A DNA stretch of 64,000 nt from Marsupella aquatica. Lineage: Eukaryota; Plantae; Marchantiophyta. Below the pieces are notes generated by a model. It ran no database searches and was not told the DNA's origin. It saw only the letters and a program-made list of their open reading frames with translations. The position numbers and the translations under genes were made by a program. Every line of letters begins with the position of its first letter. Position 1 is the first letter of the stretch. Shown here in pieces: positions 1 through 30,420 of this stretch. Where the stretch lies: assembly GCA_973895155.1 (NCBI GenBank), contig OZ316895.1, positions 742,435-806,434 of the forward strand, given 5' to 3'.

Positions 1-302
1 CTAGATAAGTACCCGATTCAGATCGAAAATTACAAGTCTCTTCTGAACCGGTGACTTCTTTGCCGATGGATTAGGCACCATCTGTACCTGTGATTTTTGT
101 GCCGCAGGGTTTGGAGAACGTACTAGAACGGTCTATTTGTTTCCTGCCTCCGGATGATCACCGGACTTCCGGACTGGTGCCTTCGATACTCGATTAGGGG
201 GTTTCGGGATAGGCTTCTGTAAAACATTAAGAAATGAAAATAAGTTTATAACGCGAATGGTCGCGTGACTACAAAGAGAGACACTAAAATGAAGTGTATT
301 AC

Positions 303-1090
303 CTGTACAAGACGGTCGTTCAGTGCTGGAATTCCGCCGGAAATGTCAATCATAGCAGCACGGATCCCGGTAACTAGGTTACTTGCGGACGTCAGCTTGC
401 GGAAGTCCATGTCAAATAACGACAAGACTATCTCCCTACGGAATTTCTCAATTTGATCCGCGGCAAAATTAATTCTGTTTCCTTGACACAAGCACTTGGC
501 GTATCTCAAGATAAACACACCACAACTGTGGCCGTCACTCTGGTGAGGAATATCATTCCGATATATCCGTTCCCAACCTGAGAGATCCAAGTTGACACCA
601 GTTCTCTAGCCAATTTCGTCGGCGTAGTACTTCCCAACAATATCTAGCACCCCAGGATTTTGTCGATTATGAACTAGAGAATCTAGGTACTCCAGCCATT
701 TCTCCTTCGGATACAAGACTACCAATGACCAATGTTCTTTCACAGCATTGTGTACTGGAAAGACCAGTTTGTCGTATTCACTGATTTTTAGCGGAAACTC
801 CTTTGTCCAAGCTGCTCTCTCCTCGTCGAAAATGGTAGGATCCATGGAGAGAAGCTCAAAATGGTGTGTTGGAAGAATTTGACAAGGTCTGAATTTCCAA
901 CTCTATCGAGAATCAGTTCGAGAAAACTCAAATAAGCGTTAATTATATCATCGGTGAGCAACTCGCGCGGTCTCAAACACATCATATGTTTCCTCTTGAT
1001 CGAGTGTTGTAAGAACTTGGTCAATAGCTCTTCCATATCCTTAGAAGGATCAAGGCATTGATCTATTCGACTAGCCAAATTTTCAAAAAA
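303..1090 (-). pseudogene. Ulp1/peptidase C48 SUMO-protease domain exon
   Basis: Contains LTDDIINAYL, FPVHNAVKEHWSLVV (catalytic His), YLDSL (Asp) and PHQSDGHSCGVF (oxyanion Gln, catalytic Cys). Split by one frameshift and one TAG. Confidence 0.9.
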
Positions 1091-1139
1091 CTGCAAAAAA
1101 CAGAGATTTCAGTACGCCTTCAAATAACGTACTGAGGTT

Positions 1140-4100
1140 TGTGATGCCTAGACAGGAATCACTCGGCCGGTTAAGTGGGTAAAGCAGGAAGGCACCCTAG
1201 GAACACCTTAGTATAGTGACAAAACAAGGAAAATATAAACAATTAGGGGCAACCATGGAACCCGGGCAGAGGCCGGAGGTAAGGCTAAGGGTGAAAACCC
1301 GATTAGGGTTAGGGCGCGTTAAGCGTCGGCGGCTAGGAAGGATCAACGGGAAGAAGGACCGGCAGAGGAGAGGGGTAAGGAGCGCTTGCAGGAGATGGTG
1401 GCTCATTTGCGAGCACGAACTAGGCAGACGACTACGGGAGGCCAACTACTGTCAGCTGCTTAGGCAAGCACTCGGGGAGAGAGTAGATACCGACGATCGA
1501 CCTAAGGAGGGTATGAGCAACGTCAATCAAGCGGCACATTTCTGGGGATGCCTGTTCGAACGGGCAACTGAGTACATCAAGACTTACGAGGACGAGGAGT
1601 CAGAAAGGGCAGCTCGAGAACGGCAGGAGCTCGCTCGATTGTGGGAGCTGCAGAAGACGGCTTTCTTAGGAGGCGAACTCATCAAGGACGAGTTCCTGTG
1701 GATGCCTACTTCCAATCAACTCGACGATCTTCTGTTTTGCAAAGACAGCGTCGTCGGCATCCGAGAGGCCATCAAGAACTGCAACGACATACACTGGGAA
1801 TTAAAGGGTAGCACGGAAAGGTGGACCCAGGCAACGGTGCTAGGAGAAACCTCCACGGCAGCAGAGATGAAGAGGAAGGGAGCCATCAACGATGAAGCCA
1901 CCCCGGCAAAAAGAACGAGGTCGGCGGCACCAAAGAAGCCAGCCGAGCAGCAGAGCAGGAGGCAGGGAGAAGCCGAAGAGGAGGAGGTCGATCCCATCAA
2001 GGCCATTCCAACCAGGGATGACACCTGGAAGGGCTGGGCGGCAACCCTACCGGTGGAGGTGCAACTACATTTTGCACGGGAGGAGGATGCATGCTTTACG
2101 GCCATGCAGACCAAGAAGTACCAAGGCTTCATGGCCGGATCCGGCTTGGAGGCCTTTGTAAGATTACCATGGCTGAAGCCGGAGGTACCGGAGTCAGACC
2201 TATTAGAATTCGTGGGGTCATGGGAACCCGAGACCAATTGCACGAGGATATATGGGAGGGATTTCTATCTTACTCCCAAGGTAATTGCCGAAGTGTTTGG
2301 CTTGCCGATAGGCAATAAGACCAAAGTTGATACCAGGAAGACCTTGCCTGACAAGGAGTTCCGGTCGTTCCCCGGGCCATCAACGAAGAATGGCTTCTTC
2401 CGGAACACCTGCACCAACCCGCACATAGGAGAGATGATCGACTTCTTGCGGGTGACCATGCATTGTAACTTGCCGAGGGCAGAGATCGGCAAGGCACAGG
2501 TCTATCTGGCAGAAAGGCCAGACCCAAGCTGGGACTACAACGGGTACCTCCTCAACCAATTGAAGAAGATCTTAAAGGAGGAGCAGCAGGTAATCGGCAT
2601 GGGGAGCGTGTCGCGGCTTGGCTATCACATGCCGCTGTTGTGCCGGTATGCCAGAGGTCAGACTTTTGCCCCGGTACTTCCCCTGCAGGTAAGGGCACCC
2701 GAGGAAGCTCCAACGCCGAGGCCGTTGGCTGAGAAGCCTCCACCACCTGTTAGTCCTACGATCGAGCAGGTGTTTAGGCCCAGGAAGGAAGACTTGTCGA
2801 TGCAGCAACCAGACATGCAGAGTCTGCTGAAACTACTGGAGAAAGAAAAGAAATTGGCATCGGCAACAACAACGGCAACGGCAACAATGCAGGACACTAC
2901 TACAGAGGTAGGCCTACACCGGCTCACAAGAGAAAACCCCTTTGCTGGAAACAAGGAGAGAATCAGGCCGGAATCCAAGCCAGGTGTTCGAATGTACATG
3001 GGAACCTCAAGCTCCGAATCTGAGGCAGAATTGCCTGAAGCTCCTACCGACGAAGAGGAGAGGGAGAAGCCGGACGTCCAAGAAGTAGAGGAGGCAGTGG
3101 AGGACTGCAGCCATGATAATTCCGGCTATGGGTCGGACCATCACGTTCCAGGAGTAAGGACCTATGGCCGGTTTGTCCCCACACTTCCAAGGGTAGTGCG
3201 AGGGGACCCCAACCAGCAGAGTAGCCCTGAGTCTCCCCCACCAGATGTTGCTCCCCCGAGCTTCGACGACATAAAACAGACGGTGCAGGAATTTCAGGAG
3301 CGAATCAAGCAGGAGGAAGAGGTCGCCCTGGCTAAGGAAAAGGATTTACCAGGAGGAGATTGGCCGGAGGACATCAGGCGGCTAGCCGAAAAAGGAAGCA
3401 AACCTCTAGCCACGATTGAAGAGATCCGCAGGACGGCTTGGGAGCAGAGGCCACGATGGGCGATGCCGATCACTTCTACTTACTCCACCTACGCTAAGAA
3501 TAGAGCCATGGAGTATGGTGAGATGTGTGGGGAACTTGAGCTCGGCATCTTTGGAGAGGAGTTGGAGATAGGACCCTTTTTCCATAGGGAGCAGTTGGAG
3601 AAGCACCAATTAGAAGAAGCGGTGGCTTTAGAGAGAAGCAAGAAGGACGAGGTCATTCGGCGGCTTAGGAGGATGGAAGCCGAGATTGAAGATCTAAGGG
3701 CGGCCAAGAAAGCCCAAGATGAACTGCGGATTAAACGACATGAGCTGAACATCATGCAGGGGCAGTTGGACACCGCGCAGGCTGATAATCAGAATATCAA
3801 GGATAAACTGACTCAGACGCAGGAAGAGTTGGCCGACACGATCAAAGAGAGGGAGAAGTGGAAGCAAGAGCTGAAGAATACAGAGGAGGCCCACATAACA
3901 GCCAACAGCCGGGCCATGGCGGAGACCCAAAGAAAGGAATGGGCGTTGAAAGGGGAGCTCGAGAAAATCCGCGGAGCCCTTGAGCAGAAGGAGGTCGAGT
4001 TAGGGAAATCCTATCAAGGGATTATGGCGCTGCAGCAGGAGCTTGCGTCCCTGACGGCCAGCTTCAAGGCCGACCTAAGGGAGAAGGACGAGATGCTCGA

Positions 4101-5790
4101 ACAGACTTACGCCAAGATGAACCAGATGGAGTCTGTCATCATTGTAGAGCTCGACAAGGAGCTAAGAGCAACCCAGGAGGAGAGGGCTACCTTGAAGAAG
4201 GAATTGGAGGAAGCCCACAGGGAGCAGGAGGAGGCCAAAAACGAGCTGGAGGGGGCACATAAGGACCTGGATGAAACCCAAGAGGAGTTGGAGGAAATCA
4301 CGAGGAAGATGGAGAACCTACAGCGGCGGGCCGACAACCAAACAGAGCGGCTGAAGAAACAAGCCGCAGTATTTAAATGCTTAGCTGCAGCAGGTCCATC
4401 TCCCGTTGGGACAAACCAGTTACCAGGGGTGGTAATTGCCGAAGGACAAGCCGCGCCAACTGCACCAGTGCCGGAAGTAAGTGGGAAGGGGAAGGGACCA
4501 GCTGCCGAGCCACCAACGAAGAAGAAGCGGAAACCTTCAGGGTCAAGGAGTAATACGACTTCACAGGCCGTGGTGATCAAGGAGGTAGACCCAGCACCGA
4601 CCCCAGACAGGGTCACGGCTAAGGATCCAACTACCCTAGGGGAAGGGGAGGCCGAAGCCGAGGGAGTGGCTGAAGCCGAAGCCGTGGGAGTGGCTGAGGC
4701 CGAAGCCATGGGTATTGCCGAGGCCGGTGTCGAGGCTGAAGCCGAAGGTGGACCCAGTCAGGCCGATGGAGAGTTGACTCAGTCAAGGGCAGGTAATCTG
4801 TCAGTAGGCGGGCCAACGGCAGTGGCTGAGGAGGAAGTGTTGGGGGCGTCCATTGAGGATCCACCACCGGTGTCGTGACGGTGCAAGGGCGCCGTTCCTT
4901 TTAGGGAGGGCGGACGTGGAGGGAGGAGGCGTGAGTGGGCAGGGCGGGCGCGGATCTCCACGTTTAGGATTAGGATCAGAACCAGGAGCGGCCCTGACAC
5001 TTAGCTTAGTGGGATTGCGGTCCCACTGGTAGGAGCAACACTTGTGCTCCTGCCTTGCTGTACATAGGTAGATTCGGGCAAGTAGATGACTGTCAGGTAG
5101 ATTAGGCTTACGATGCAAAGAATGGCGGATCCACTACCAGGATAAGTACCTGGGCAGCGGGGAGCTCAGGGCCTCTTCTTTAGCAAGTTTTTAGTTTGCA
5201 CCAGCCGGGCTGGGATCAAGTAGTACGAGAAGCTCTCGGTTAGTCATACAGTGACCCTTGTGTATATTCATGTTTCCTCATGCCTAAGAGCTGAATAGAG
5301 TTGGCCTCACGGCTTAGTTCGCAGAACTTGTGTATGAGATGTACTGTTTGTATGGCAAGTGCATGGTATGACTCAGTCAGAATGAGTCATTTTGCTATTT
5401 GTGTGTCGCATTAACTTGTGTGAAGAGTGCCCACATCAACAGAAGGAAGGAAAGTAAGCAAGGGAGTGAGAGTTGGATGTGTCGAGCTGAGAGAGGTCTT
5501 AGCGGCTTAACCAAGCCTATTGGGGATCATTCCGGCGGCGGAATCCAAACATACCTAACAAGAAGACAGGGGAAGACAGGGGAAGGCCTATATTAGGCCG
5601 GCTACGTATCTCATGACCCGATGAAGGATCTGTCCAGTATATGTGTGTAAAATGTTAATAGTAGTAGCAGAAGGTTAGCAGCGTCCCATGCCGCTAAGCC
5701 GCGGAAACGGCCTCGCCAAGCACGAAACCTGCGGGAATCGGCTTGAGCTGGGGGGTTTCTTGGGTTTAGGGAGCCATGGGACGCACCACA
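1140..5790 (+). mobile_element. Solo-LTR-like element family A, copy 1 (4651 bp), inside an intron of the multidomain gene
   Basis: Starts TGTGATGC and ends GCACCACA (short imperfect inverted ends). 5-bp TSD AGGTT at 1135-1139 and 5791-5795. No gag/pol and no internal direct repeats. A second copy lies at 14285-18943. Confidence 0.9.
1513..4878 (+). CDS. LTR-borne protein (~1121 aa from ATG 1513; frame open from 1216) with a plant-retrotransposon accessory-ORF-like domain and a long coiled coil
   Basis: Intact ORF. The segment GLEAFVRLPW..LLEFVGSW..IYGRDFYLTPKVIAEVFGLP (~2128-2312) resembles plant mobile domain/Transposase_32/Athila-ORF1-like motifs. Heptad-rich region at ~3590-4370. TATAAA at 1234-1239. 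Confidence 0.75.
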   Translation: MSNVNQAAHFWGCLFERATEYIKTYEDEESERAARERQELARLWELQKTAFLGGELIKDEFLWMPTSNQLDDLLFCKDSVVGIREAIKNCNDIHWELKGSTERWTQATVLGETSTAAEMKRKGAINDEATPAKRTRSAAPKKPAEQQSRRQGEAEEEEVDPIKAIPTRDDTWKGWAATLPVEVQLHFAREEDACFTAMQTKKYQGFMAGSGLEAFVRLPWLKPEVPESDLLEFVGSWEPETNCTRIYGRDFYLTPKVIAEVFGLPIGNKTKVDTRKTLPDKEFRSFPGPSTKNGFFRNTCTNPHIGEMIDFLRVTMHCNLPRAEIGKAQVYLAERPDPSWDYNGYLLNQLKKILKEEQQVIGMGSVSRLGYHMPLLCRYARGQTFAPVLPLQVRAPEEAPTPRPLAEKPPPPVSPTIEQVFRPRKEDLSMQQPDMQSLLKLLEKEKKLASATTTATATMQDTTTEVGLHRLTRENPFAGNKERIRPESKPGVRMYMGTSSSESEAELPEAPTDEEEREKPDVQEVEEAVEDCSHDNSGYGSDHHVPGVRTYGRFVPTLPRVVRGDPNQQSSPESPPPDVAPPSFDDIKQTVQEFQERIKQEEEVALAKEKDLPGGDWPEDIRRLAEKGSKPLATIEEIRRTAWEQRPRWAMPITSTYSTYAKNRAMEYGEMCGELELGIFGEELEIGPFFHREQLEKHQLEEAVALERSKKDEVIRRLRRMEAEIEDLRAAKKAQDELRIKRHELNIMQGQLDTAQADNQNIKDKLTQTQEELADTIKEREKWKQELKNTEEAHITANSRAMAETQRKEWALKGELEKIRGALEQKEVELGKSYQGIMALQQELASLTASFKADLREKDEMLEQTYAKMNQMESVIIVELDKELRATQEERATLKKELEEAHREQEEAKNELEGAHKDLDETQEELEEITRKMENLQRRADNQTERLKKQAAVFKCLAAAGPSPVGTNQLPGVVIAEGQAAPTAPVPEVSGKGKGPAAEPPTKKKRKPSGSRSNTTSQAVVIKEVDPAPTPDRVTAKDPTTLGEGEAEAEGVAEAEAVGVAEAEAMGIAEAGVEAEAEGGPSQADGELTQSRAGNLSVGGPTAVAEEEVLGASIEDPPPVS

Positions 5791-6779
5791 AGGTTGTAGC
5801 CTAAGGGTTGTAGCCTCAGAAAATAGAAACAATAACAGATCAATAATAAAATAATGACGTCTATAATAGAAACTTTAAGCTTATAGCTTGCGAATGACCT
5901 TTGGATTGGGTGGATCCGGCCTTTTCACAGCTGATCTCTTGGGTGCCTCAATCGCAACAACATCCTTCAGCCCTCCTCGAGACCGCAGTGATCGCTCCAC
6001 CGGACCAGTTTGCGAAGGTTGGAGCGATGAGGCGGGAAGACCTTCAAATGGTTGTGGCATTTGATTCAAATATTCCACAATCTAGGAATCCGATTCCAAA
6101 ATATCCGGTGCCACAATTTCTACGCGAGTCACCTCTGCAATATATCGGGGTCGAGACCACGAACCCGGTCGCGTCAAGTCAGCTGTTAGTCTCTTAACGA
6201 CTTGAGCCAAGTCTGGTGCCAAAAACATTCCCAGGTCTTGCACTCGATTCTTGGAAAAGCGGACATTATTGATGATTGTCTCCATTCTGGATGCAGTGGC
6301 AGTCTTCTCCTCGGTAATCAAAAGACCCTTCCAATATTGCAAAGCAAGGACTGCCTGGACTCGGAGCTGCTCCGGTGAATATTTATTCCAATCATCCAAC
6401 GAGACCGTACTTAAGGGTGGATCGTTAAATTCAAACTCCGGGCGAAGAAAATAGTCTAATATTTTCTTCTTAACTGCAACTGAGGGTGAAGAAGGCTTTT
6501 TCAAATTCAGCCTTATTTTCGGTAGATGTTGTGCCTCAGGAATAAGCGAAAGATCCTTGGCCCTCTCGGCCTCCTTCCTCACTGCCTCCAGTCTTGCGGC
6601 TTCTTCTCTCTCCAGTCTTGCGGAATCGACCTTTTCCGCCTCCAACTTCTCCGCCTCCATCCTCTCCGGTCTTGCGGTCTCGTCCACCATCCTCTCGGCC
6701 AGCAGCCTCTCAGCCGCCACACTCTCCGCCTTGGCCCTATTTTCCTCTGTCACTAAAAGGACTCTCACAGCCTCCGTGT

Positions 6780-7395
6780 TCTCGGCCTCCGCTTTCTCCG
6801 CCTGGGCTTTCTCAGCCTGGGCTTTCTCAGCCTGGGCTTTCTCAGCCTCCGCTTTCTCCGCCTGGGCTTTCTCAGCCTCCGCTTTCTCCGCCTGGGCTTT
6901 CTTAGCCTGGGCATTCTCAGCCTGGGCTTTCTCAGCCTCCGCTTTCTCCGCCTGGGCTTTCTCGGCATCCGCTTTCTCCACTTGGGCTTTCTCAGCCTCC
7001 GCTTTCTCCGCCTGGGCTTTCTTAGCCTGGGCTTTCTCAGCCTGGGCTTTCTCAGCCTGGGCTTTCTCGGCATCCGCTTTCTCCGCCTGGGCTTTCTCGG
7101 CATCCGCTTTCTCCGCCTCGGCTTTCTCCTTCTTCTTCGCGGCAGTTGCTTTTCTAGCTGCTGCCTTTTTCTTCTTAACCTCCTTCTTTTGAAGCTCCTC
7201 TTGCCGGGCCGCCTCTTGTCGGGATGCCTCCTCCTGCCGGGCCGCCTCCTTCTTTTGAAGCTCCTCTTGCCGGGCCGCCTCCTGCCGGGCCGCCTCCTTC
7301 TTTTGAAGCTCCTCTTGCCGGGCCGCCTCCTGCCGGGCCTCCTCCTGCCGGGCCGCCTCCTCTCTGGCCTCCTCCTGCCGGGCCGCCTCCTCTCG
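6780..7395 (-). repeat. Coding minisatellites: 15-bp AEKAQ/AEKAE units (~6780-7130) and 18-bp EEAARQ-type units (~7190-7395)
   Basis: Tandem GCCTGGGCTTTCTCA and CCTCCTGCCGGGCCG units within ORF 6082-7572. Confidence 0.95.
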
Positions 7396-10300
7396 GTCCA
7401 CCTCATGTCGAGGCTCCTGTGTGGCCTCTTCATCAGAGTCCTCAGCATCCTCGGAACCCTCCATCTCCTCATCCTCTTCATCAGCGTCCTCAGCGTCCTT
7501 CATCTCCTCTCCGTCACTCTCTTCATCTCCTCTATTGTCAGAATCTCCGACATCGTTCTGCGTATCGGTCATCCACTTTGGATCTTGGTCATTGACATCC
7601 CCATCCGCGTCACCTTCCGCGTCACCTTCCCCTCACCATCCGCATCACCATTGCTCCCTGCATCCTCAACATTGAAGCTGCAGTCGACTTGATCTGAATA
7701 AAATCAAATCATTTGATAAGAATGACTCACGCGCATATTCGCGTGAAAAGAAATGTTATGAATGTCCACGCGCATGTTCGCGTGACGCAATAAAAAGTAA
7801 GAGGTTTCAAAAGTAACTTACCTTGGATTGGCCCACTAGGGTACTCCGTTGGTCGAATATACAATCAATCGGAATCTTCAGAGAGTGCATACTCTTGCAA
7901 TAATTGATTACAAATATTATCAGGGATATGTTGTTCGTGGAGGACATCCAAAACATCAGCCCTGAGAGCAGTTACGGATGGACGGTACTTCATTAATTTA
8001 TCTATACATTTTTCTATACTAGCCCGTACTGGGTCAATCAATGACAGCGTTGTATCAATTGTCACCGTGGTGTGTTGCAAGAAACAAGACAACTCCCTAT
8101 GCGTTGCCACAGGGCAGTAATATTTTACATTGGATCCAACATCCTGTAAAAAAAACCGAAATTAGTTCACAATATTAATTGAGAATATAATAATCTAAAT
8201 AATCTTAAAATCGAAACCCCAAAATATAAATCTCAAAACTTACCATTAAGCACTGGATCAAGTTCGTTCCCTCACCGAAGCATATAGCCCATTCCCCACA
8301 TTGGACGAATTGACTAACAATACTTTCAAAGAATGGAAGTATCTTTTCTGGGGAAGGTGTCGTGAACTCGCCGCTCTCTTCAAAATTGGCTATCTTCTCA
8401 ATCTGATATTTGGAGACCAATTGGAACTCGAGGGCTTGTGGATCGCCCATTGTGCTGAAGGCCAAGCTGTGAAAAGCGTAGGTTACAATAAGCTTCTTCT
8501 CCTTCGGCCGCTTCTGAATATAATGGCTATCGACAGCAACGTAGTGTGTGTACTTCCCTAATTCCCGTTTGATTAAGTAAGACTCAACGGGAGAGGCTAC
8601 AATAATAACCACATGGTGTGGTTTTGCCCCTATCTCGCTAGTAGCACGAAATAACCCCTCATAGAATGAGCAATTTGGCGGACGCAAATCTCCCATTGAT
8701 GAGGGATCAAAATAAATCAAGCTCGCAAGGTTCTTGTCTTCACGTATGATACAGTCTGCAAACCCAACATTTTGTATATCCTGTAGGGATTGCAATTTCA
8801 GCCTCTCACCGATCGGCCGCACTAGTTGGTTTCCTTGACTATCAACTGATTTCTGTATTCCTTCCACCAACCTGTAGAATATAGGGTCGATCTCCTTCAA
8901 CAAATTATCATTACTAATATTTACATTTAAGCACTTCTTCAGATAACCACTCAACGCATCTCTCAACTGCTTCAGCACCATCTTGTCGAGCTTAAAGCGA
9001 TCAATCATTCCTTTGACCCGCAATTTCCGCGCTGAATCTGTCAGACTTTTCAGCTTCGTCCGGGTGGATGTTTCCCCGTTGAGTTTACTCAATAATAAAA
9101 TCTCAAACTCAACTTTCGTCTTCTTCTTTATACAGAATTGCTCCAAACTCATGCTGGTCGTTGACAACACTGGAGCCTCAGAGGACTTCCTTGCCTTCCC
9201 AGATTTCACTTTGATGTTTCGGTTTTTGAGTATAGACAGTCTTCCGCTCAACATATATTCCGCTGCCTTTCGAAGAACCGAGTCTGAGCACCCTTGACAA
9301 GAACGGAATGTCTTCTTTAGAAGATGATAAGCACACGGATTATCCGCAATTTTGACGGCGTCCCTCTGTAAAATTCCGTTGTAAATTACAAGCTCTCCTG
9401 TCCTTGATAGTTCGTAGACCTCCATCCACTTCTTGAATGTTTTGTCCTCCATTGTAAAGAGAAACAGAGCCAATTCTCCAAATTTCATCATTTCGTTCTT
9501 CCCCATTTGAGCCCATGGGCAAACAAAACTCGGAGCTCTCATAAATACCTGAAAAACAATGGAAACATGACAATTCTAAGCTTGACGCGACCGTTCGTGT
9601 GACAAAAGTTTATACGATAATGTGATCGAAGAGGGTTATTTATATACCTTCCAATTTGAATGACGATAATGTGATCTAGGCCGCCCAAATGAGTTCCAGA
9701 TATTACGACACTGTCGTACAATGGTGAGAAACTGTCCTTCTTCCATTGATGTTTGATGACAGTGGTTCAGAGCTTTCGATAATCCCATCAAATGAACATT
9801 ATTGTCGTTGTTGAGCGTTACCCAAAACATTACAGCTTCTACAGTACCGCAAGCGTCTCGTACAACTTGGCTGACTTTGTCGTCCTCTCTTAGCAATTTG
9901 TATGCCATTATTGTGTGCTGGCCTCCGAGTATCCAGAAATGACTGGTCATAATGTCCTCCTCCTTTGGCGATGAATCGTAGGGTGTCCCATTGTAGTCGG
10001 GATCTCTGTCGGCCTCCAACTGAACCCACTTCACAGGGACTAAAAAGTAGCATCGCTTCTCAAACTTTATAGCCGAATGAGAGAGGAGTGAATTCTTTAG
10101 CCTATCTGTGTAATCCTGATTCCACTCTCGGCACTTGATGTGGTCCTGTGCAAGATGACAACGTGATGTCTCAACAAAAAATGACTTGTTGTTAAATATA
10201 TTCACAGCACTATATTCTTTGAGGAAAGAATCGAACATAGCCCCGACATTCGCTGAGGTAATTACTTTCGGAAGATTCTCCGCCAAGTATACTTCAACCT

Positions 10301-11492: not shown

Positions 11493-11526
11493 AATATGGA
11501 AAAGATTAAGAACAAGAACCTATCCA

Positions 11527-12093: not shown

Positions 12094-12227
12094 CCTGCTT
12101 TTATCATATCACAAAACATTGTTAGAAGACATACGACGCGCTTGGTCACGTAAGTTAACTAGAATTCCTTAAAAGCGTAGATGTCACCCTCAAGGTATCC
12201 AACTTCGTGGCATCTGACTATAAATTT

Positions 12228-12739: not shown

Positions 12740-12849
12740 AGATTATTTTCACGCGACTGGTTGCGTCTACAAATCAGAATGCATAAACAATTCTTTGAGA
12801 GACTGATTTTTTCGGGTCACAACGTGACAAATCATAAATGTTGCTTCGT

Positions 12850-18943: not shown

Positions 18944-20849
18944 AGGAGCTCATTATGTCGAGTTAAAAAGACTCTTTCAGAAGTACAATCAAAGCTGTGG
19001 ATAGGCAAACTGAGCATGAATAAAAGCGCACTAAACCTGAAGATTCAAAGAGGTGAAACAAACCTGAATGTTGAATGGAAGGAGCTAAAACAAGCTGCCA
19101 AAAAGTAGTTCGAGCTGCTGAAACACGTTGATCGAGCTGATATGAGCTTAAAATTGGTTGACACGAGCTGATACAAGCACTCCCAAAAAGCTAGCTGCAA
19201 CGAACTAGCAAACTAGAAGTGAATACAAGTTGTAAATGCGAGCTGCAATGCGCCAACAAGCTCCTGGTCAAAACGATGGACAACTACTAAGAGCTGCAAC
19301 GCGCCGACAAGCACCTGACCACAACGAACGAGCTGCAACGACAAAAATGAAATCCAGGGCAGGAGCGAGAGCGAGAGTAAGAGCAACGAGAGCGAGAGCA
19401 AGAGCGACGAGAGCAGGCGCGCGAAAGTCTAGGGAGCGAGAAACAACAACAATGAACAATGAACTCGAGACCGTGGGCACCGACACTAAGGAAGGACTAA
19501 TTAGGGTATTTTTTTAGCATAACCCTAATAACAGCCTAGCGACATGAAGGTTCCAGATGATCTCCCGTACACTCCACCATCGACTGAACAAACTATGCAA
19601 TCGTGAAAAAAATATTACCGGATTCCTTTTGATTTGCCGTACTAAAGGAGATTTCTATTTGATCACCAATTTGAAATTTAAACCGGTAATTATGCAACTG
19701 CGAAAGATTATTAGTGGGGACCCCCGGATCCGGATCCGGATCCGTATCTTCACTATATCTGCCAATTCAAATCCAAAATATGAACGAACGACAACTTTCT
19801 CACGATCGTTCCATCACGTAGTGGAGGCAAACTTCAAAATCATTCCATTTTGGTAGTGGAGACCGTCGGATCCGGATCCGTACTCCACTCTCTATCTTGC
19901 TAATTCAAACCCTTACTCTAAACAACATAAAATGATTCTCACGGTCGGGGAGAACCGATATTCAAAATCAATCCTGTACAATGATTCTCACGACTGGAGA
20001 CTCAACCAATTTTCAAAATCAAAATCGAGTCCAAATGAACACATCCTCCATGGAGTCAATAGACTGATCTCATTGCTCACGGATCATTCTTCATTTTCAG
20101 TTTCTCCTGACCAGGATACTAGCTGGGCTCTCAGCGGAGGCTGATTCAAGGCACATTTGAGGTGGAGCAGATTGGATCATTCGACTATTCCAGTCGGAGG
20201 CGGAGCTCATTCAAGCAACGCTGGCGCAGTTCTTGTTGTATCACCTTCAATCTTGGGGAGAGCACATCCGATCAAGCGGGAGAGTTGCAACAAAGCGAGA
20301 TGACAAAGATTTAGAACCTCCATAGTCTGCCTCATTCATCGAAGCATTCTAACAGACCAACAAAGAGCGGCTATTCTGAAATCACTGTCTGGTCGAGGAT
20401 TTTGATCTTGATATGATCAACAAGTTGTCATTCTCTGGTGGTGGGATTCGGTCACGATACTCAAGGAAATTGGAGTTCAAAGGAGGAGGCTTAGTTGGCT
20501 GGGACGAGGAGGAGGCTACGTTGGAAGGAAGAGGCTTGGCTGGGAGGAGGGTTTCCGCCAACATCGGAGGGTTGCCGCCAATATTGCTGAGACCACACGC
20601 AACTGAATAACTTGTAAGTATCAATCAGCATTAATTCCACAATAAATGAGGAGAGTAGTTGCCTTAAATCACGCATTCAATGCATGAATTGAGTCAATGA
20701 AGTTATGGTCCAATTTCTCACTCCGATTTTGATCAATCCGTGTTTCAAGTCCAATACAGAAGCAATGTATCAGAAGTACTAGTAGAGGATCCGAATGAAT
20801 TCTCTAGTCTAAAATTGTATGGCGGACGCGTATAGTTGTCCGTACGTTT

Positions 20850-21800
20850 TGCTATTGTTTATTGTAGTCGACGGCCTAGCAAAACGAAACGTAATCGAGG
20901 TCCATTTTTCAGATCTTCCTGATCTCAACTTGTTAGTAGGATGACCTGTTTTTTGGTTACACATGTAGTTCATCACGCGCACAGTCGCGTGAACCAATTT
21001 ATCTCGTGTCTTTTGATATTGTTTATTGTAGTCGACAGCCTAGCGAATTGGCCAGCAATCTATTTTAAAACCAACGTCTTCATTTCATCACGTGCACGGT
21101 CGCGTTAATGTTTTAGAGGTCAGCAAAAGCTCTGCACTCTCAGACGTAATCGCCCTTTATTTCTCATATCTTCCTGATCTCAACTTGTTAGTAGGATGAC
21201 CTGTTTTTTGGTTACACATGTAGTTTATCACGCGCACAGTCGCGTGAACCAATTTATCTCGTGTCTTTTGATATTGTTTATTGTAGTTGAAAGCCTAGCG
21301 AATTGGCCAGAAATCTATTTTGAAACCGAGTTCTGATTCACGCGACCGGTCGTGTTAATGTTTTAGAGGTCAGCGAAAGCTCTGCACTCTTAGACGTAAT
21401 CGCCCTTTATTTCTCAGATCTTTCTGATCTCAACTTGTTAGTAGGATGACCTATTTTTTGGGGTACACATGTAGTTCATCACGCGCACAGTCGCGTGAAC
21501 CAATTTATCTTGATATTGTTTATTGTAGTCGACTGCCTAGCAAATTGGCCAGAAATATATTTTAAAACCGAGGTCTTCATTTCATCACGCGCCCGGTCGC
21601 GTTAATGTTTTAGAGGTCAGCGAAAGCTCTGCACTCTTAGACGTAATCGCCCTTTATTTCTCAGATCTGCCTGATCTCAACTTGTTAGTAGGATGACCTG
21701 TTTTTGGTTACACATGTAGTTCATCAAGCGCACAGTCGCGTGAACCAATTTATCTCAGGTCTTTTTGATATTGTTTATTGTAGTCGGCAGCCTAGCGAAT
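20850..21800. repeat. Tandem array, ~250-bp unit x ~3.7, with two ACGCG-N6-CGCGT palindromes per unit
   Basis: Repeated GATCTCAACTTGTTAGTAGGATGACC blocks. Palindromes at 20975, 21090, 21230, 21340, 21481, 21587 and 21726. Confidence 0.93.
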
Positions 21801-22005
21801 TGTCAGTCAGAGGAATCTTCTTTTTTCCCTTGATTGCAAAAATGGTTACATCGATCCCGAAGGACTTCGGATGTGGAATCCATATCCACTAGCACTATCC
21901 AGGAATTTAAGCTACACAGTATCTATAACAAGTTCTAACTTGAACTACTCTTGAATCTGTAGTTCTAATCTTCGACTACTCAAAATATTGTTGACTTCGA
22001 TCGAG

Positions 22006-22548
22006 TCAGTCATTCCAAGATGAAGGCATCCACTCATCGGTGTCTGGTGTGGATTCCCTTGAATCCAGAAATTCTTCCTTTGCCCAAGTCCTAACGTCCA
22101 TAGATTTTCTCGGCTTGCTCTTTCTGTAATACAAATCAGAATCTTCGTTCATCTCTAATTGCCTTTTCTTTGGTGCGTCCACTTTCTTGGCCTCCTTCTT
22201 GACTGTCTTAGCGTCTGCTGCTGCTTCCCCCGAAATGGATTTGACGCATGCTCTGGCCTTCAACTTCTCCCCCCTCAAAATGGATTCCACGAGGGCTTTG
22301 CCCTTTAACTTCTCCCCTGATGCCATCTTTGTAGTCATCTCTGTCGGATTGGTCTCCATATGATCTTCCATCGACAAATGTGGCGAACAATGTCGTCTCT
22401 CACAAAACATTTGACCCGATTTAGTCACCGTAAACATTATATTACATCGCTGACACATTCTTTAAGGAGTGCCACGAATTTGATACGTCGAACCTTCTAA
22501 ATCGTCCGTCGGAACATCCTCATTCTTCGAGCTCAGCGGAGTAGTCAT
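22006..22548 (-). pseudogene. Small Cys-rich (possible Zn-binding) cargo ORF with one in-frame stop
   Basis: MTTPLSSKNEDVPTDDLEGSTYQIRGTP*RMCQRCNIMFTVTKSGQMFCERRHC followed by a basic/acidic tail. No family recognised. Confidence 0.4.
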
Positions 22549-22864
22549 CGCCCTTCAAACAAGAGATGCTGACCGAGACTAAGAATTGGAAATGAGAGAG
22601 TTGATGTGCGAATAGATTATCCAATAGCCAGAAAGTGGAATGCGTGGGGGAATGAGCAATAGGGATCATCTCAATGCTTTATACTGTTTAGTCTCCACTA
22701 GTCATTGTACATAGTGGTTTCTAGAAGAGGGTGCGTGTTTGACTGGCGCGTATTAGAATTGGCGGGAAGTTCAGTTGTCCTCTAATTATGGCTTTAATTT
22801 CACGTTTGGCGACCGCCCCGAGAATACTGATTGCTAGTGAAGTACTGAGATTTCTTATGAAGGT

Positions 22865-23600
22865 CAGTAGTTACTGACTGTCCGGTGTCCACTCATTTTT
22901 CCTGAGTGGAGTTGAAATGATTGTTTGTAATCGATTGTAGTCGTTCTCATTCACTTGAAATGACTGACGAACCATGCATTATCTTTACCGGTATGTGTGA
23001 TGCCTTTAGATCCGTAATTGTATCTTCCTGTCTCGCGCGCAATTGTATCTTACTTATGAAGTACCAATTACGAGCTATAGTTTGGGCCTAGCCTTCTAGC
23101 TTCTACGTCGTAGACCCTGTACCCTCTGACTAAGGTCACGCAACATGCCTTTAGATCCGTAATTGTATCTTCCTGTCTCACGCGCAATCATATCTTACTT
23201 ATGAAGTACCAAGTATGAGCTAGAGTTTGGGCCTAGCCTTCTAGCTTCTACGTCGTAGACCCTGTTATCCCTACACCCTCTGACTAAGGTCACGCGACTA
23301 GTCGCGTGCAGGGCAGTGCATTGACTACATTCTGCCTACTTATTGACGGTTGTGACAGGACAATGCAGTTCACGAACGTTTTACTGGCGCTTATTAGCAC
23401 TACTATCCTCAATAGTTACTGACTGTCCACTCATTTGTTCTGAGTGGATGTGAAATGATTGATCGTAATCGATTGTGGTCATTCTCATTCATTTGATATG
23501 ACTGACGGACCATGCATAGTCTGTTGCCGGTATGTGTGGTACCTCTAGGGTCACGCGACCAGTCGCGTGTAGCGCAGTGCATTGACTACATTCTGCTTAT
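22865..23600. repeat. Nested duplications upstream of the transposase (~146-bp tandem pair at ~23000-23290; ~135-bp block at ~22868 and ~23413)
   Basis: ATGCCTTTAGATCCGTAATTGTATCTTCC occurs twice and TAGTTACTGACTGTCC...CCGGTATGTGTG occurs twice. Palindromes at 23292 and 23553. Confidence 0.85.
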
Positions 23601-25863
23601 TGACCGACGTGACAGGACAGTGCAGTGAAATTGACGGACGTGACAAGACTGTACGCTTACAGTGATATTCTCTGATGTGCAGGATCATAATTATTATGGT
23701 GACATCGACAGTCTGGATCAGGGAAGGCGGACAAGTTATTATAGGCATACGTGAGAAACAGGTTGGAAAAGGTCGCGTGATAAGTCTTGATCCTTCCAGG
23801 GTTTGTCACAATGTTCCTCTTGGGGCGGACAGAGTTCTTCTTCTATTGGAGGAAGTTTTTGACGAGACCATTCTATGCGAAGATGGCAAACTTTTGAAGG
23901 ACATGATTGGGGGTTACCTTGTATGGGAAAGGAATCAGCTTTTTCGAGCTCCCATGGAATCGGAGGATGTGTTTGGCACTGTTGGTGATGATCAAGATCC
24001 AGTCAATCAAAATTCTGATGGGAACAACCATAATGAGAGTCGGTCTGGTGTGGAAGTAGTTTTACCAAAGGCCTTGTGGATGGGCATGCCTGTAAAGGTG
24101 GTGGATGAGAACAAGTTGATTTTTGCAGTGGCAACTATACATGTTCTAGATCCTATAGTGAAGCTTGGGGATGTCACCCTTGGGAATACACATGTGGGAA
24201 TTCTGATCAACGATTTTGTCGAGGGAGCTACCATAGATCATCTGAAGCATAGAGATTGCTTAAAAGCTTGGTCGATGGACCAACTCATTGCCAAGGATGG
24301 CAACTTGTTGTCTTTCCACAACATCAGGCAAGCTATGGGAGGGAACACATCTCCAACAAGTGGCAAGCGGTCCTACGTCCATAAAAGTAGGAAAAGAAAG
24401 AGTCCATCTTCCCAGACATCTAGAAGAGACACATCTTTGGCACGTCAAGATGTGTTGTTGATAAACACTAAGGACTGTTGTAGTGAACATTGTTGCCAAT
24501 ATTTGGACCGCAACTTGGCTATGGCAATTAGGCAAAAGTGGTGGTCAAAATCTTTTGCGGAGCGCAAGGAGGAGGTAATCAAGGCTATTAAAAATACAAT
24601 ACACTTGGGTACTAGAGAAAGGATTCTAGCAGTGGAGGGCAAAGTATTGTGCTTGGAGGCATGGAGAATCATTCATTCAAGAGGAAAGACTCAATTTTAT
24701 GCCTTGAAGAAGACTGTGATGGCTGGAATGAACATAGGTACCCATGGTAATGTTGGAAAAAGGCGTATGTCCGAGAAAGTATCTCTAGCATTCATGTCAA
24801 TGAAAGAGATTATTGAGGAGGCAGCTGATCATCATCCAGCCAAGTTGAGAACCATGGCAGATAATACAAGGATGGTTTTGAGGGAATTGCCAACAAATCT
24901 TACTTGGGAGAATATTAGAAACAGGGTTAATGTTGTCAACCAGGAGGCTTGTCTTCCTCCAATTTCCCAACCCACCTTGAGTCATCTACATCAGATTTAT
25001 TTTAGGGAGTTCTCACGTCACAAAAAGGGCAACAACTTTTCAAAGTGTACAACTTGTAGTGAGTTGCTTCAACAGAAAGCAAACCTTACAGGAGCTAAGG
25101 AAGAGTTAGAGGGCCTAAGGCGTGACGAGGAGGAACATCACCAAGACCACACACAGCAAAGAATGTGCTATCATGCCTGGAGATATGAGTCCATCCATCG
25201 TCCAAAGGAAGTGTTATGCCTTATTCATGATAAGATGGATCATTCAAAGACAGCTCTCCCAAGAATGCCCTTCAATCCTAAGCATGTGGATGGTGCCCAA
25301 AAGTTCCCAATTACTGTTGTCACGTCATCGGCTGCGGCCTTAACTCAGACTTCAGCTTAGACGGGCACATCCCTCGTAAATCTGAGGGTTCGGGCAGGAA
25401 GGGAAGCACATAATGCACCTTATTCTCGTAAACTAGCGCTAAGTGCGCATACTGCTAAATACGGACACCTCCTAGGTATGGTTTGTGTTCCGCCGCCGGA
25501 ATGTACCTTAGTCGATAGCAGGATCGACCCCGGCTTAAGGGCTTCTAAGCCTTCGTGCTGTCCGCCTTTGATCCAGATTCGATGATACAGGTCCTCAACC
25601 CGTGCTCGCAACCACTTACCCGCAGGCTGCACCCTGTGCACGTCTCGGGTAGTGCGTTCGGCCTGGCGCTGCCACCCATATACGAGAAACCCACACACAT
25701 ACACGCGCACATGCATACAATCTCGATTTACATGAAGGAAAATGATGGGAAAGGATTTTACTACAAAGGGAACATATGCGTACACTTAGTTGACCCGACA
25801 GCCCCGGAATGAACAGGTTCAAGGCCGAGGGTGCACACTACAACGGAGCGCGGCTTCGCACTC

Positions 25864-26206
25864 ATCACCCTATTCATTAAAAGTGTATTTTATTTTGTTC
25901 ACTTTTAGGCCTCGAAATGTACACTTGTTGGTCTCTAAATGTACACTTTTTAACCCCAAAAGGTATACTATAGTACAATACTCTACACCTAAACAGTCAA
26001 TTGTAAACTTGAGGGAGAAAAAATAATCTTTACTAGAAGGAGTCTCATCCTAGTTCATTTATAAAAGATGAACATGGTGGTATGTCTGATGGCCATCACC
26101 TTTATTTCTTGCTCAAATGTACACTTTTAGAAAGCCAAATGTACACTTTCTATTGCCCAAATGTTCATAAATTGAATAATAATTCACTTTTAATGAATAG
26201 ATTGAT
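25864..26206. mobile_element. MITE nested in the family B solo LTR
   Basis: TIRs ATCACCCTATTCATTAAAAGTG / CACTTTTAATGAATAGATTGAT. ACTC is duplicated at 25860-25863 and 26207-26210. AT-rich interior with AAATGTACAC repeats. Confidence 0.8.
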
Positions 26207-26675
26207 ACTCGCCCGACGAGCTTAGTCCTACCCCCTCCCCTTGGTACTCTTTCATTCCCAGAGGTCGGGACTCCCCGCACATACCGCGGACACCCAACTC
26301 TGCAACTAAAAACCCCCTGCCTCTACCGAGGGGTGCACTAAATACTAAGGGCTGAGGGACGGGGTGTCCTCTCGCCGAAGATTCACTGACTAAGGTCCTA
26401 ACTAAGCTGACAGTCAGGCCGGAAACGGCTGTGTCTTATTAGAAGATCCTAATCTACGCAGGCTGGATAGCATGGCAGCGATGTTGTACCTAAGACAGGT
26501 GCCTGTCCCAAGAGCCTGACTAAGCTAGTCCTAATCCTAATCTATTCCTACTCCGCCGCTAATGCCTGGCACGCTTGCCAGAGCCGTCTAAATGGGAGCG
26601 GCCATCCCGCTGCCTTCGAAGCTTGTCATTGTCCGCCTTGAGGAGCTGGACCTGGTCCAGTAGAGATTCGTTCTC

Positions 26676-27602
26676 TCACCTCGCCGCGTCCGTCTCCTTT
26701 GTTGCCTCCTGACAAGCCTCCTCCAACTGTTGGGCGTCACTTGTCAGTTTACCCGCCAGCTGGTCCTGCTTCTCGGCCTCGGTTTGGAGCCGCGCCACCT
26801 CGGCCTGCAACATGGCTATCTCCGCCGTGTCCCGTTGGGCCCGTTCCTCGGCCTCCTCCAGGTCTTTCTGCCAGGTGACAGTTTGATTCTTCAAACTGTC
26901 AATCTGGTTCCGGAGTTGTGTAATCTCGGCCTCGTTCCCAGCTTTGGCCTGTTCGGCTAGGGCGGTAAGAGCGTGCGCCTTTGCTAACAACTCATCGGCG
27001 GCTGCAACCTTGGGTCGTAGTTTCCAAAGCTCAGCCTCTTGAGCCGCAACTTCGTTCTTTAGGTACACGGACTCCACCCGGTACCGCTCTATCCTCTGAA
27101 GGGCCTCTGACTGGGCCCGACCTGCCTTTACTACGGCAACCAACTCCTGATTGAAGAAACAGGCTACCTTCCGGGCCATGAACTCCCCGGTATCCCGGGC
27201 AATTTGATGAGAGAAATCTCCCAGAAGCCCGTTCAGAAATGTACCCAGTACGAAGAGTTCCGGGTGGTCCAGGTTGTGCCTGTCCGGAGTTGGGCACGGG
27301 CAGACGTCAACACGCGCGGGGGCCGGGGCAGTGACGTCCAACCCTGGGGACGTAACGTTGGAAGGGGCTGGAGCGTCCTCCTGTAGCAATGTCTGGTTCT
27401 CCGGAATAGCCACCGGTGGGTCTTTGGGAGAACCGGGCTCGGGTAAGACCTCCGCCGTACCGACTTCTGTACTTAGCCCGGCCTGTTGGGTCGCATCAAC
27501 GGTTGCAACACCCGACCCATCCGGTACCTCCTCGGTTACGACTACAGCTACTTGTGGAGGTGGGGTGGGTGAAGCTGGCGTGTGGACTGATGGACTGGTG
27601 CA
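26676..27602 (-). pseudogene. Pro/Ala-rich then coiled-coil ORF remnant inside the family B element
   Basis: Frame is open from ~27602 to 26676 with no upstream ATG. Heptad-like C-terminal half (EAEITQLRNQIDSLKNQ...). Confidence 0.6.
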
Positions 27603-29841
27603 CTACAAAGGGTTGGCTCCCCTTTTATACCTTGAGGGCCTGTCGATCCCCCGACGTCTCCTCGATGCCCATAGGCTGAACCGCTCACGCTTGTGGTGTG
27701 CCGGCCACTCCGCCGGTCTGAGTCAGCGCGTGTCAGTGGCCGCTTCCTTAAGTTTGTTATACGGACCCGAGGGAGGGGCCCCTCCACGCTCGTAACCCGG
27801 GTGTGCGAATAGCGACCAGCCGCCAGTCCGAACCTGAATTCCCCCTTATTGCCTAATGATATCCTACCCATAATGATTACCTAAATACTATCGTTATGCT
27901 AATAATAGCGGTCTAAGACACTCCTAACGCGCGTGCCGAGCGCAGTTAGACCGAATCACTTATTAACCGCCGTACCGGCGGCGTCACAACTGTCACTAGT
28001 ATCCTTACTCATGGTCATGGTCCCAAGGCCATAGCCCAATATCATGTTGGAGTGTGGCCAGGTGATGTCAACATCACTATTGGGTCAATTGATTCAATAC
28101 TAAGGATGTTGGAAAACCCAAATCCAATGATCAAATCACTTGTGGAGGGGCCAGACTCGACAAGTCTTTTTAAAGACCTCCTTTTTGGGAGAGCAGATAT
28201 CTTGGAGGCAAGTGTCCTTAGAGCATTTGAGGATGACATTGCCTACATCTCAAGCCTAGGTACTTTACTCACAATCCTTTAATTATTATTATTTAATAAT
28301 ATAAGCTCACACACACTGACACTCTACTTTGTGTAGTTGTTGCTCCTCCTAGCCAAGGTTTCATTAATAGGGTTTAAACCCTAAACCCTAAATTGGGGTT
28401 TAGGGTCTGACTAGGGTTTTATTTAAAAGCATTCTGAGATTGTTACATTGTGATGCAGCACCTGAGGCACCAAAGTTCAGGCCCCTTCCACGAGTATTGA
28501 AGCTACAACTGGATAATTGTGCCTCAGACAACAAGAACAGATATATGATGGCTTATTTGTCATTGTTGACGGCAAGGGAGGTGTTTGAAGAGGTTCATCT
28601 TGGTTTTATGGTGGTTGGGCATACTCATGAGGACGTTGACGGTATGTTCAGGCATTTTTCAGAGTCTATGATGCATAACCCCACATACTCATTGCCTGAG
28701 TTAATGTCCTTGTTCATGAGAGCAAGGACACCCAATGCAGTCCCACATTTTCTACAGGAGGTCCCAGATTTCAAAAACTACTTAGCTCCATTCATGTTGA
28801 AGGGCCCTGAGGCATTGGTGGGGCATTTAAAACCCAGGCTGTTTAGGTTCTATGTTCGTCATGATAGTATGCCATGCTTCCAATACAAAATGAAGTCAAC
28901 TGATCAGGGATGGTTACCCAAGGAAGGTATTGAAATGTGGTCATGGAAAGATGACAAAAGTCCTCACATCCCAATTGGGGTGCCCAAACGGCTACCAATG
29001 ATGGAGTTGAAAATGCTTCCTGACGTGCTGACAGGGTTGAAGAAGCATGTGTCATTCTTTGAGTTTATTCTAAAGCGAACAAAAGAGGAAGAACCAAAGC
29101 GACGTTGGACAACTCTCATCAATTATTGGAATGACATTGTAGATACTCTATAGGGTGAGCAGGTGCAATATGAACCTGAAGGTGCACACAACTTGGAATA
29201 CGGGTTTTAGCCTTTATCAATATGGAGAGAGCACGTTCCACCAGAATATTGAAATGTGGCATGTGAGTTGGAGGCAACAGTGGATTATGTGGGACCAGCA
29301 AAAGATAAACCTCCTGAGAGTTTTAACCCTAGGGTTGATGTTGTGAAGGGCTGTTATGTGTTGGTACGGCCGGACGACTCAGACCTGGATGTTTATCCTG
29401 TCCATATGGGGTTAGTTGTTACAGATGTGGTAGAAGGACCAGTGAATGAACAAAACCTTCTTACTCATGTATGTGGCGTTGAGTGGTTTAGACCATTTAT
29501 GGCAAAGAAGCAACGTGGTCAATCAGACTGGCAGCCAAGAGAGCGGTGGGCAGATTCTTGGGATAAGAAATGGGAACGTGATCCAGCTCCAATATACAAG
29601 GAAGCTGAGACAATAGATGTTTCCTCTGCCTTGTGGTGTTTCAAAGCACGCAAAGGACCAGTGACTGGGCTGGTAGGAATTCCAAAGAATGTTGTTGTCA
29701 AGGCAAGAGACTATCTCTTGACATGCATAGCAAGTGACAAATCCTAGACAGTAATGAAGCATGTAGTTTAGCATACAGTTTAAAAGGCAACTCAGAATAG
29801 TAGTAGCCAGAGAACTCAAGTTTAGACAAGTCTTATCGTCT

Positions 29842-30420
29842 AAGTTAGTTAGTTGGTTAGTTTATTTAAGATATAATATTAGTTAGTGGGGCCTTAGTTT
29901 GGTTATATTAAGGCATGATATTATTGACATTCAAATGAATGTCCAGTAGACATTGTAATATACAACAATCCTATTAATAAATAATAATTATAGTTACACC
30001 CTCAAGTGAACTCAACTTTCAATGATTTCTGATTTTATATGGTTCCATGCCTGATTGAGTCAAAGCAATAGAAACTAACTAATTAAAGGGTGATACTATA
30101 ATTGTAGGTCACGCACCCTGGTGCGTGTCAATCTTTTTTGTATTCAACCCTATAGTAATTAAATAGACAAGTTAGTTAGTTGGTTAGTTTATTTAAGATA
30201 TAATATTAGTTAGTGGGCCCTTAGTTTGGTGATATTAAGGCATGATATTATTGACATTCAAATGAATGTCCAGTAGACATTGTAATATACAACAATCCTA
30301 TTAATTGTTGTAAAGAAACTAATTAATTAAAGGGTGGTACTTACTATGATTGTAGGTCACGCACCCTGGTGCGTGTCAATCTTTTTTGTCTTCAACCCTA
30401 TAATAATTAAATAGACAATT
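29842..30420. repeat. Tandem duplication downstream of the transposase carrying the palindrome variant ACGCA-N6-TGCGT
   Basis: AAGTTAGTTAGTTGGTTAGTTTATTTAAG... at ~29842 and ~30169. CACGCACCCTGGTGCGTG at 30110 and 30358. Confidence 0.85.

Follow-up and report, generated by a model that had tools for sequence, protein, structure and literature searches.

The DNA analysed here, a stretch of 64,000 nucleotides referred to below as the window, comes from the liverwort Marsupella aquatica (assembly GCA_973895155.1, contig OZ316895.1, positions 742,435 to 806,434 of the forward strand). Its left part, from the first base to 30635, belongs to a large multi-copy cut-and-paste transposon, very probably of the Sola1 type, the present copy of which is decayed, with in-frame stops and frameshifts. 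A plus-strand transposase gene and a set of minus-strand passenger (cargo) sequences are arranged divergently, three nested inserts lie within the element and a palindromic motif recurs outside the exons (Table 1). The first-pass annotation, which covered positions 1 to 30,420, had given the element at least 18 kb excluding nested insertions. Without its three nested inserts the element measures 18,424 bp when counted only to 30420 and at least 18,639 bp when followed to its right end, in agreement with that estimate, and the earlier remark that no ordinary host gene lies in these 30 kb holds for all open reading frames (ORFs) of at least 100 amino acids in 1–30635.

Table 1 Features of the element and of its right flank (positions in the window; a dot, no strand assigned)
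Feature	Position	Strand	Remarks
Visible part of the element	1..30635	.	Left end before base 1; 18,639 bp once the three nested inserts and their duplications are removed
Predicted passenger exon running off the window	1..216	-	Ends in KRLVIFDLNRVLI
Intronic single palindromes	250..10953	.	In 4 of 6 predicted introns: 250; 7728 and 7767; 9584; 10936
Predicted passenger exon, Ulp1 (peptidase C48) SUMO-protease domain	303..1090	-	Frameshift near 890, stop at 608
Nested insert I1	1140..5790	+	TG..CA, AGGTT duplication, 1,225-codon ORF; within a predicted intron
Predicted passenger exon, acidic stretch, 15-bp repeat coiled coil, linker	5899..7693	-	Frameshift near 7600, stop at 6084
Predicted passenger exon	7822..8143	-	In-phase splice chain; one stop at 7867
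Predicted passenger exon, conserved N-terminal part, then weak N4/N6 methyltransferase-like leads	8244..9548	-	In-phase splice; P0077
Predicted passenger exon, PH-like (residues ~36–180) and ParB/Srx fold (~231–380)	9648..10887	-	Model pLDDT (predicted local distance difference test) 83.5; 32 homologues
F-box-like unit 1	10966..11519	-	In-phase splice to the ParB exon possible
F-box-like unit 2	11530..12036	-	Paralogous to both other units; of 7 donors tried, none splices in phase to unit 1
F-box-like unit 3	12231..12742	-	This copy has a frameshift near 12536
269-bp tandem array upstream of cargo	12750..13655	.	8 palindrome hits
Nested insert I2	14285..18943	-	Inverted copy of I1, 94%; AGGAG duplication
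~250-bp tandem array	20847..21802	.	7 palindrome hits
151-aa ORF, cysteine/histidine-rich start	22009..22461	-	No family found
Two near-perfect palindromes upstream of the transposase	23291..23569	.	
Transposase, N-terminal part	23696..25317	+	HDKMD at 25226; 26–30% identity over ~370–620 aa to full-length relatives
Nested insert I3	25318..27988	.	TG..CA, ACTGT duplication; splits the transposase ORF
Transposase, continuation past insert I3	27994..28259	+	Predicted donor at 28260
Transposase, catalytic and C-terminal exon	28459..29747	+	DUF7869; QLDNC, HTHED; in-frame stops in this copy at 29151, 29208 and 29250
Two variant palindromes in subterminal duplication	30110..30375	.	
Right terminus	30618..30635	-	AAC-first on the minus strand; 13/18 identical to the terminus of related elements
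ATTT	30636..30639	+	Predicted 4-bp target duplication, right-hand copy; agrees with AWWT; left copy outside the window
Copia 3' part, flank outside the element	30636..33372	+	Reverse transcriptase 31578–33047, purine tract 33364, long terminal repeat start 33373

The transposase gene spans 23696–29747 and, with the nested insert set aside, comprises about 1,058 codons in two predicted exons. It matches Pfam DUF7869, which we take to be the family covering Sola transposases, at 28404–29150 (E = 2e-37). The catalytic motifs HDKMD (25226), QLDNC (28506) and HTHED (28620) are also present in the four full-length relatives checked, and the D, D and E/D motifs are either invariant in alignment A1 or common to those four, so that the earlier description of a DDD (three-aspartate) transposase is borne out. 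Fifteen longer relatives of the transposase were found, the best of them 59–69% identical; the sole named one is a Physcomitrium patens DUF7869 protein (45%), which, together with the Copia flank, points to a plant source. A word-index search for homologues of the N-terminal part gave no match, which is weak evidence. Telomere-like TTTAGGG/CCCTAAA repeats stand in the predicted transposase intron (28370–28405), and part of these repeats resembles the right terminus of the element. Over 29025–29398 the majority contig of run X1 departs from the window at three letters, as many as there are stops in that span.

The assignment to Sola1 is indirect: the closest named match is from Physcomitrium, and the Sola of Physcomitrella is listed as Sola1 (PMC9033089). 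The target fits AWWT. This target is represented by ATTT here and by AAAT and ATAT, plus one TAAA, in relatives. AWWT has been called a hallmark of Sola1 (PMC3845634) and has also been found in Sola2, so it is not diagnostic alone (PMC3627910). Three published motif blocks of Sola2 (DFAENY, SDG and ATSHGK) were compared by eye with the present transposase, and none of the three matches. Sola3 elements have a TTAA target and long inverted repeats; the target here is ATTT and the relatives have short ends, which does not fit Sola3. Terminal inverted repeats of 11–1124 bp are reported for Sola. Most Sola elements are 2–9 kb long, some exceeding 15 kb (PMC10741241). Matches in the Atlas to DUF3723, a Starship-associated family (0.91–0.92, low recognition), were taken as a shared fold. 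They were not taken as a sign of a Starship, since no tyrosine recombinase ORF was seen (the best Pfam phage-integrase row had E = 0.1).

The right end lies at 30635, 215 bp past 30420; the first-pass statement that the ends are not visible thus now applies to the left one only. A Copia element starts abruptly at 30636, and contigs of other copies of this Copia (run X4) run leftwards through ATTT into different sequence, which shows that the transposon interrupts the Copia element at ATTT. Five matches of 13/18 quality to the terminus exist in the whole window on both strands, the one at 30618–30635 falling exactly on the Copia breakpoint. A plus-strand (left) terminus-like match is absent from 1–30635, and the 5' half of the interrupted Copia element was looked for and not found within the window; the left end of the element therefore most likely lies before base 1.

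A terminus of this kind recurs among relatives. Eighty related loci were compared, including 12 near-identical pairs, and 55 had enough flank. The terminus was found 1.3–4.8 kb past the catalytic match in 42 of these 55 loci and on the wrong strand in three, the loci not all being independent. A blind inverted-repeat scan of the 80 loci gave mostly chance pairs, and the recurrent terminus alone was retained. Both ends could be placed in seven loci, representing five independent elements of 4.3–11.3 kb with inverted ends of roughly 20 bp. Their 4-bp duplications were perfect in three cases (ATAT, AAAT, TAAA), off by one base in one and off by three in one. The flanks of the 42 right ends are AT-rich and often not AWWT.

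The association of cargo and transposase was examined with Logan contigs, mapped over 18800–33500 and 7450–21000 only. Contig depth, which is not equivalent to copy number and had no single-copy baseline, was 473–1156 over the cargo bins (7450–12873), 605–1045 over the non-repeated spacer and 749–964 over the transposase in run X1; the corresponding values in X2 were 1163–2498, 1151–1968 and 1436–2023. Relative to these parts the tandem arrays reached about 3-fold and the inserts about 10- to 100-fold depth. Joints corresponding to an empty I3 site (25312–27989) had a depth of 729, 1454 and 3537 in X1, X2 and X4, respectively, and those corresponding to an empty I2 site (14278–18943) a depth of 543 in X1, 588 in X2 and 3 in X6. 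The bridging of these empty-site joints in other copies indicates that I2 and I3 are private to few copies. Diverged cargo pieces were seen in X5 and X6 at depths below 20, and reads from four studies cover the cargo stretch. Depth and joints together establish that 7.5–30.6 kb form one unit present in many copies.

The same divergent layout is found in distant relatives. L024 (675–11947), like L026, is a two-ended 11.3-kb relative with an ATAT duplication; both carry, opposite the transposase strand, a tandem pair of NIF/FCP1-like domains, together with 21 copies of their own 12-bp palindrome, unlike that of the window, all between the element's ends. In L051 a profile of the ParB exon (see below) matches on the opposite strand, 5.6–6.4 kb upstream of the transposase (E = 1e-8); the ORF that follows the ParB-like piece gave no significant alignment with that of the window. 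In L055 the same profile matches upstream of a NIF ORF (E = 0.004). The divergent-cargo layout is thus older than this genome. The cargo-bearing relatives' copies are old and degenerate, and most relatives show no cargo at the search sensitivity used. The claim of one unit is upheld by the equal depth in X1 and X2, the empty-site joints, the right end within a Copia element whose 5' half, like the matching left terminus, is absent from the window, and the relatives of the same layout, and we regard a single giant Sola1-type element, whatever its motif does, as highly likely.

Two further observations concern these loci. The L055 stretch (9600–14300) consists of a degenerate ParB-like piece followed by the same-strand NIF ORF, downstream of a Sola transposase, and could be part of an adjacent element of the opposite orientation. 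Five loci (L040:1458–12452, L043, L046, L049 and L031) represent a family of about 11 kb with a conserved, non-coding-looking left arm of 2 kb, in which no cargo ORF was recognised.

Between 11519 and base 1, seven pieces on the minus strand can be joined in phase across six GT-AG introns, with splice sites picked by sequence pattern among a small number of candidates. A large share of the cargo is thus likely to be a single gene of six or seven exons, divergent from the transposase. The predicted order of its product is a PH-like fold, a ParB fold, a region assigned to no family, a coiled coil, a Ulp1 protease and the possible start of an FCP1-like phosphatase. In this copy the gene contains stops at 7867, 6084, 608, 135 and 3 and two frameshifts (near 7600 and near 890).

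The ParB fold is solidly predicted from the structural model of its exon. The first 16 listed Foldseek rows are all of the ParB/Noc/Srx family (best E = 0.014), and in VIA the top eight rows are all ParB/Srx, with PadC at Z 8.2 (root mean square deviation 3.1, 99 aligned) and KorB at Z 8.0. Z scores near 8 are modest, and it is the agreement in rank that decides; the PH-like fold is middling at Z 4–5. A word-index search for the ParB region among longer proteins found no match (weak evidence). Homologues support the exon boundaries: of 14 that run through to its donor in the ParB exon, 13 continue there into a V codon, and the protein P0077 spans the junction between this exon and the following one (E = 4e-28). 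For the following exon (8244–9548), no Pfam, PHROG, NCBIfam or PDB match was obtained, and a three-row profile found no methylase in PDB. Atlas rows at 0.77, among them an N6_N4_Mtase cluster, are no more than a lead towards a methyltransferase, and by eye FDPSS and CFGEGT resemble degenerate methyltransferase motifs IV and I.

At the far end of the gene, the Pfam C48 family was matched in two pieces, both past the cut-off (E = 2e-6 and 1.5e-4), making the predicted Ulp1 domain solid. The exon at the window's edge gave no Pfam match and a weak match to the NIF gene of L024 (E = 0.016); its terminal residues resemble the first motif of FCP1/NIF phosphatases, and the passenger gene possibly continues into such a domain, which we treat as a lead.

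The three F-box matches (E = 0.002–0.018) all fall short of Pfam's curated cut-off, and no splice free of stops could be built between units 2 and 1 or between units 3 and 2. Since the homologues P0054 and P0056 begin at the ParB exon, and only unit 1 joins in phase, the F-box-like units may be separate genes. The first-pass annotation had counted at least five cargo genes in divergent layout. The minus-strand divergence stands, and the count is better replaced by one large gene, two or three F-box-like units and the 151-aa ORF. From the ubiquitin/SUMO/chromatin toolkit then proposed, Ulp1 and the ParB fold can be retained, the F-box matches are weak, and the methyltransferase and FCP1 are leads.

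The palindromic motif (ACGCG-N6-CGCGT, at most one mismatch) is confined to the element; the first-pass annotation had described transposase and cargo as tied together by one motif. All 23 hits (Markov expectation 0.14) fall in its de-nested sequence, with none in the three inserts and none in 27989–64000. Many hits stand in tandem arrays and do not represent 23 independent sites. None of the 23 lies in an exon, though exons account for 10,869 of the 18,639 bases. Among the differences listed in X1, A or T in the window against G or C in other copies is commoner than the reverse (91 A>G and 105 T>C versus 39 and 61), an excess that would fit a methylated, decaying copy.

The three nested inserts all have TG..CA ends and 5-bp duplications. 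I1 and I2 belong to an abundant 4.65-kb insert without an internal terminal repeat pair or reverse transcriptase; they differ at 192 of 4,613 aligned bases, and their depth in X1 is 26,000–77,000. Their 1,225-codon ORF has a coiled coil at its end and reaches no Pfam family past cut-off. They are probably solo long terminal repeats or non-autonomous retroelements, for which so large an ORF is unusual. I3, likewise abundant and 2.67 kb long, has a minus-strand ORF of 308 codons with a coiled coil; an imperfect inverted repeat lies within the insert (25864–26206).

Outside the element, a tandem array of 19-bp units, part of which is repeated in inverted orientation, occupies 33532–34070, just inside or after the start of the Copia 3' long terminal repeat (33373). 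No Rfam match was found in 1–34000. The nearest host-type gene, on the minus strand at 37198–39127, has no Pfam match and carries a GNYWYD motif, which is reminiscent of the extra-large G protein / zinc-ribbon N-terminal region of plants. A second Copia-like element, its pieces rearranged and partly triplicated, lies at 42468–47681.

We consider it the most probable account, with rather better than even confidence, that this is a giant Sola1-type element whose passenger protein, combining a ParB fold with a SUMO protease, binds the element's own palindromes and so counters silencing. The DDD transposase of intact copies would cut at short AAC-first inverted ends and duplicate four AT-rich bases. 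The passenger exons would make one protein, which, like ParB at parS, would load at promoter and intron palindromes and would bring deSUMOylating, and possibly phosphatase and methylase-like, activities to the element's own copies in a VANC-like manner. The present copy, with its stops, its frameshifts and an insert in the transposase, is dead and would depend on intact copies elsewhere. Binding to the palindromes and anti-silencing are both inferred; a self-binding role of this kind has been proposed for published analogues.

Several observations weigh against this account. The left end and the left target copy lie outside the visible sequence, no contig spans the whole unit (the mapped pieces reach about 1.2 kb at most), one of the runs may be the window's own source, and the short side of the I2 joint is 25 letters in X1 and X2, only a shallow X6 contig bridging it with 63. 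The CpG observed/expected ratio falls from 0.85 in the cargo exons to 0.31 in those of the transposase (p = 6e-8); the step lies near 23,820, and CpG content is uncorrelated with how far away a palindrome lies (rho = -0.17, p = 0.30). A direct tblastn search of the 80 related loci, with the cargo of the window as query, gave no match, and the ParB-exon profile reaches only two of them (L051 and L055); in L051 the gene is linked by adjacency, and a weak terminus-like match stands between it and the transposase. Foldseek gave the ParB exon model no match at E 0.001, the methyltransferase identity is only a lead, without a significant match, and the predicted fusion of Ulp1 and FCP1 rests on splice phase in a decayed copy.

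The strongest alternative is one giant Sola1 in which the palindromes bind the transposase or a host factor, the passenger gene acting otherwise, for example on host SUMO or ubiquitin pathways in general, or being neutral cargo. The absence of a CpG gradient around the motifs speaks for it. It would also suit the variant palindromes within 530 bp of the right end and those upstream of the transposase gene, and many copies of related loci, in which no cargo was found, have a different palindrome near the right end. It does not suit the single palindromes in four of the six passenger introns, far from both ends, nor the ParB fold of the passenger gene, and the ParB accessory genes of red algae, as far as their description goes, also adjoin inverted-repeat arrays. 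We hold this alternative to be a real contender of clearly lower probability.

Less likely still is a composite of a conventional Sola1 of 7–8 kb and a separate cargo element, joined in an ancestor of the family or only here. The sharpness of the CpG step at the transposase start speaks for such a junction, as do the lack of the strict motif right of 23.6 kb, the position of the left end outside the window and the failure of the direct search for cargo in the related loci. Depth is equal across the CpG step in two studies, however; neither a plus-strand left terminus in 1–30635 nor the Copia 5' half in the window was found, and relatives have divergent NIF or ParB genes. An old fusion that spread as a unit would, moreover, still be one element today. 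The CpG step, at which CHG (H being A, C or T) content also falls sharply inside one element, may mean that the transposase gene alone has long been methylated or that two parts were fused in the distant past. The unit is highly unlikely to be a segmental duplication that was amplified recently, or an assembly artefact, with a Sola transposase in it by chance: its boundary falls exactly within a reading frame of Copia, at a terminus of the clade's type, and four studies' reads cover the cargo stretch.

We suggest, tentatively and as a possibility that we rate well below even, that non-seed land plants keep an old giant-Sola1 lineage encoding a single-protein ParB clamp, loaded at element-specific palindromes, that would carry a SUMO protease, an FCP1-type phosphatase and a methylase-like domain along its own DNA, with F-box-like partners. 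On that reading a bacterial-style parS/ParB system would operate in a plant nucleus, sequence-specific anti-silencing would have been invented a second time, independently, and the giant-Sola1 family may still hold intact copies. If the fusion of Ulp1 and FCP1 holds, it would show which host silencing steps are under attack by the element. The ParB-type accessory proteins of algae are proposals only; the land-plant family makes palindrome binding directly testable, because its motif and one of its ends are defined, its copies are many and nearly identical, and the fold is predicted with confidence. Such passenger genes can also pass as host SUMO protease, F-box or phosphatase genes in the annotation of non-seed plants.

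Among known systems, Physcomitrella Sola1 and other Sola elements have a DDD transposase and an AWWT preference, as here, and a 4-bp target duplication, which is predicted for the present copy; unlike in the present element, cargo of this kind is not mentioned in the accounts at hand. A close counterpart is Sola1-1_Ec32 of the brown alga Ectocarpus, a giant Sola1 of 21.5 kb in which an accessory gene with ParB-like and methyltransferase domains lies opposite the transposase strand (PMC12477816). In its protein of 1,104 aa an N4/N6 methyltransferase domain is recognised, whereas here that domain is a weak lead; Ulp1, FCP1, F-box and palindromes are unmentioned in the part of the report available, and the likeness is judged from its description. 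Nested inserts and dead transposases are described there as common in such giant families (PMC12477816). The inserts of the Ectocarpus families are generally fixed among copies, whereas the two tested here are absent from most other copies.

The passenger gene resembles the algal ParB-methyltransferase accessory genes in its predicted ParB-like domain and in lying opposite the transposase strand and near inverted-repeat arrays. In the red alga Bostrychia, the Plavaka gene PAG3 encodes a ParB-like N-terminal domain and lies beside inverted-repeat arrays, and self-binding has been proposed (bioRxiv 10.1101/2025.02.11.637652). That system differs in its Plavaka/EnSpm transposase, its red-algal host and its partner domain, a putative 2-oxoglutarate oxygenase, as far as it is described. 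For inferred function, and with no homology implied, the model is VANDAL, a Mutator-type element, with its protein VANC. This transposon-encoded protein of Arabidopsis recognises element-specific targets multiplied in tandem repeats, and there anti-silencing has been demonstrated (PMC5735166); by one account, VANDAL/VANC is the only proven case of self-targeting transposon accessory proteins (bioRxiv 10.1101/2025.02.11.637652). The Sola2-Fanzor chimeras of dictyostelids also carry a passenger gene and have AWWT duplications, the cargo there being Fanzor and the motifs those of Sola2 (PMC3627910). A review of eukaryotic adenine methylases (PMC4738411) lists ParB fusions with helix-turn-helix domains from chlorophytes and chytrids; from land plants it gives few such enzymes.

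Among the papers listed by the literature searches, none describes a ParB/Ulp1-carrying Sola from land plants; the Ectocarpus and Bostrychia supplements may list plant relatives. The novelty that the first-pass annotation implied for a cargo-laden giant Sola is lowered by the prior publication of a giant, cargo-carrying Sola1 (PMC12477816), at least as that report presents it. The design is thus already known, described mainly in algae so far, and the present element adds to it a family from a land plant, of which one end is mapped, which has recently spread to many copies and whose passenger gene has likely been extended by Ulp1, and perhaps by FCP1.

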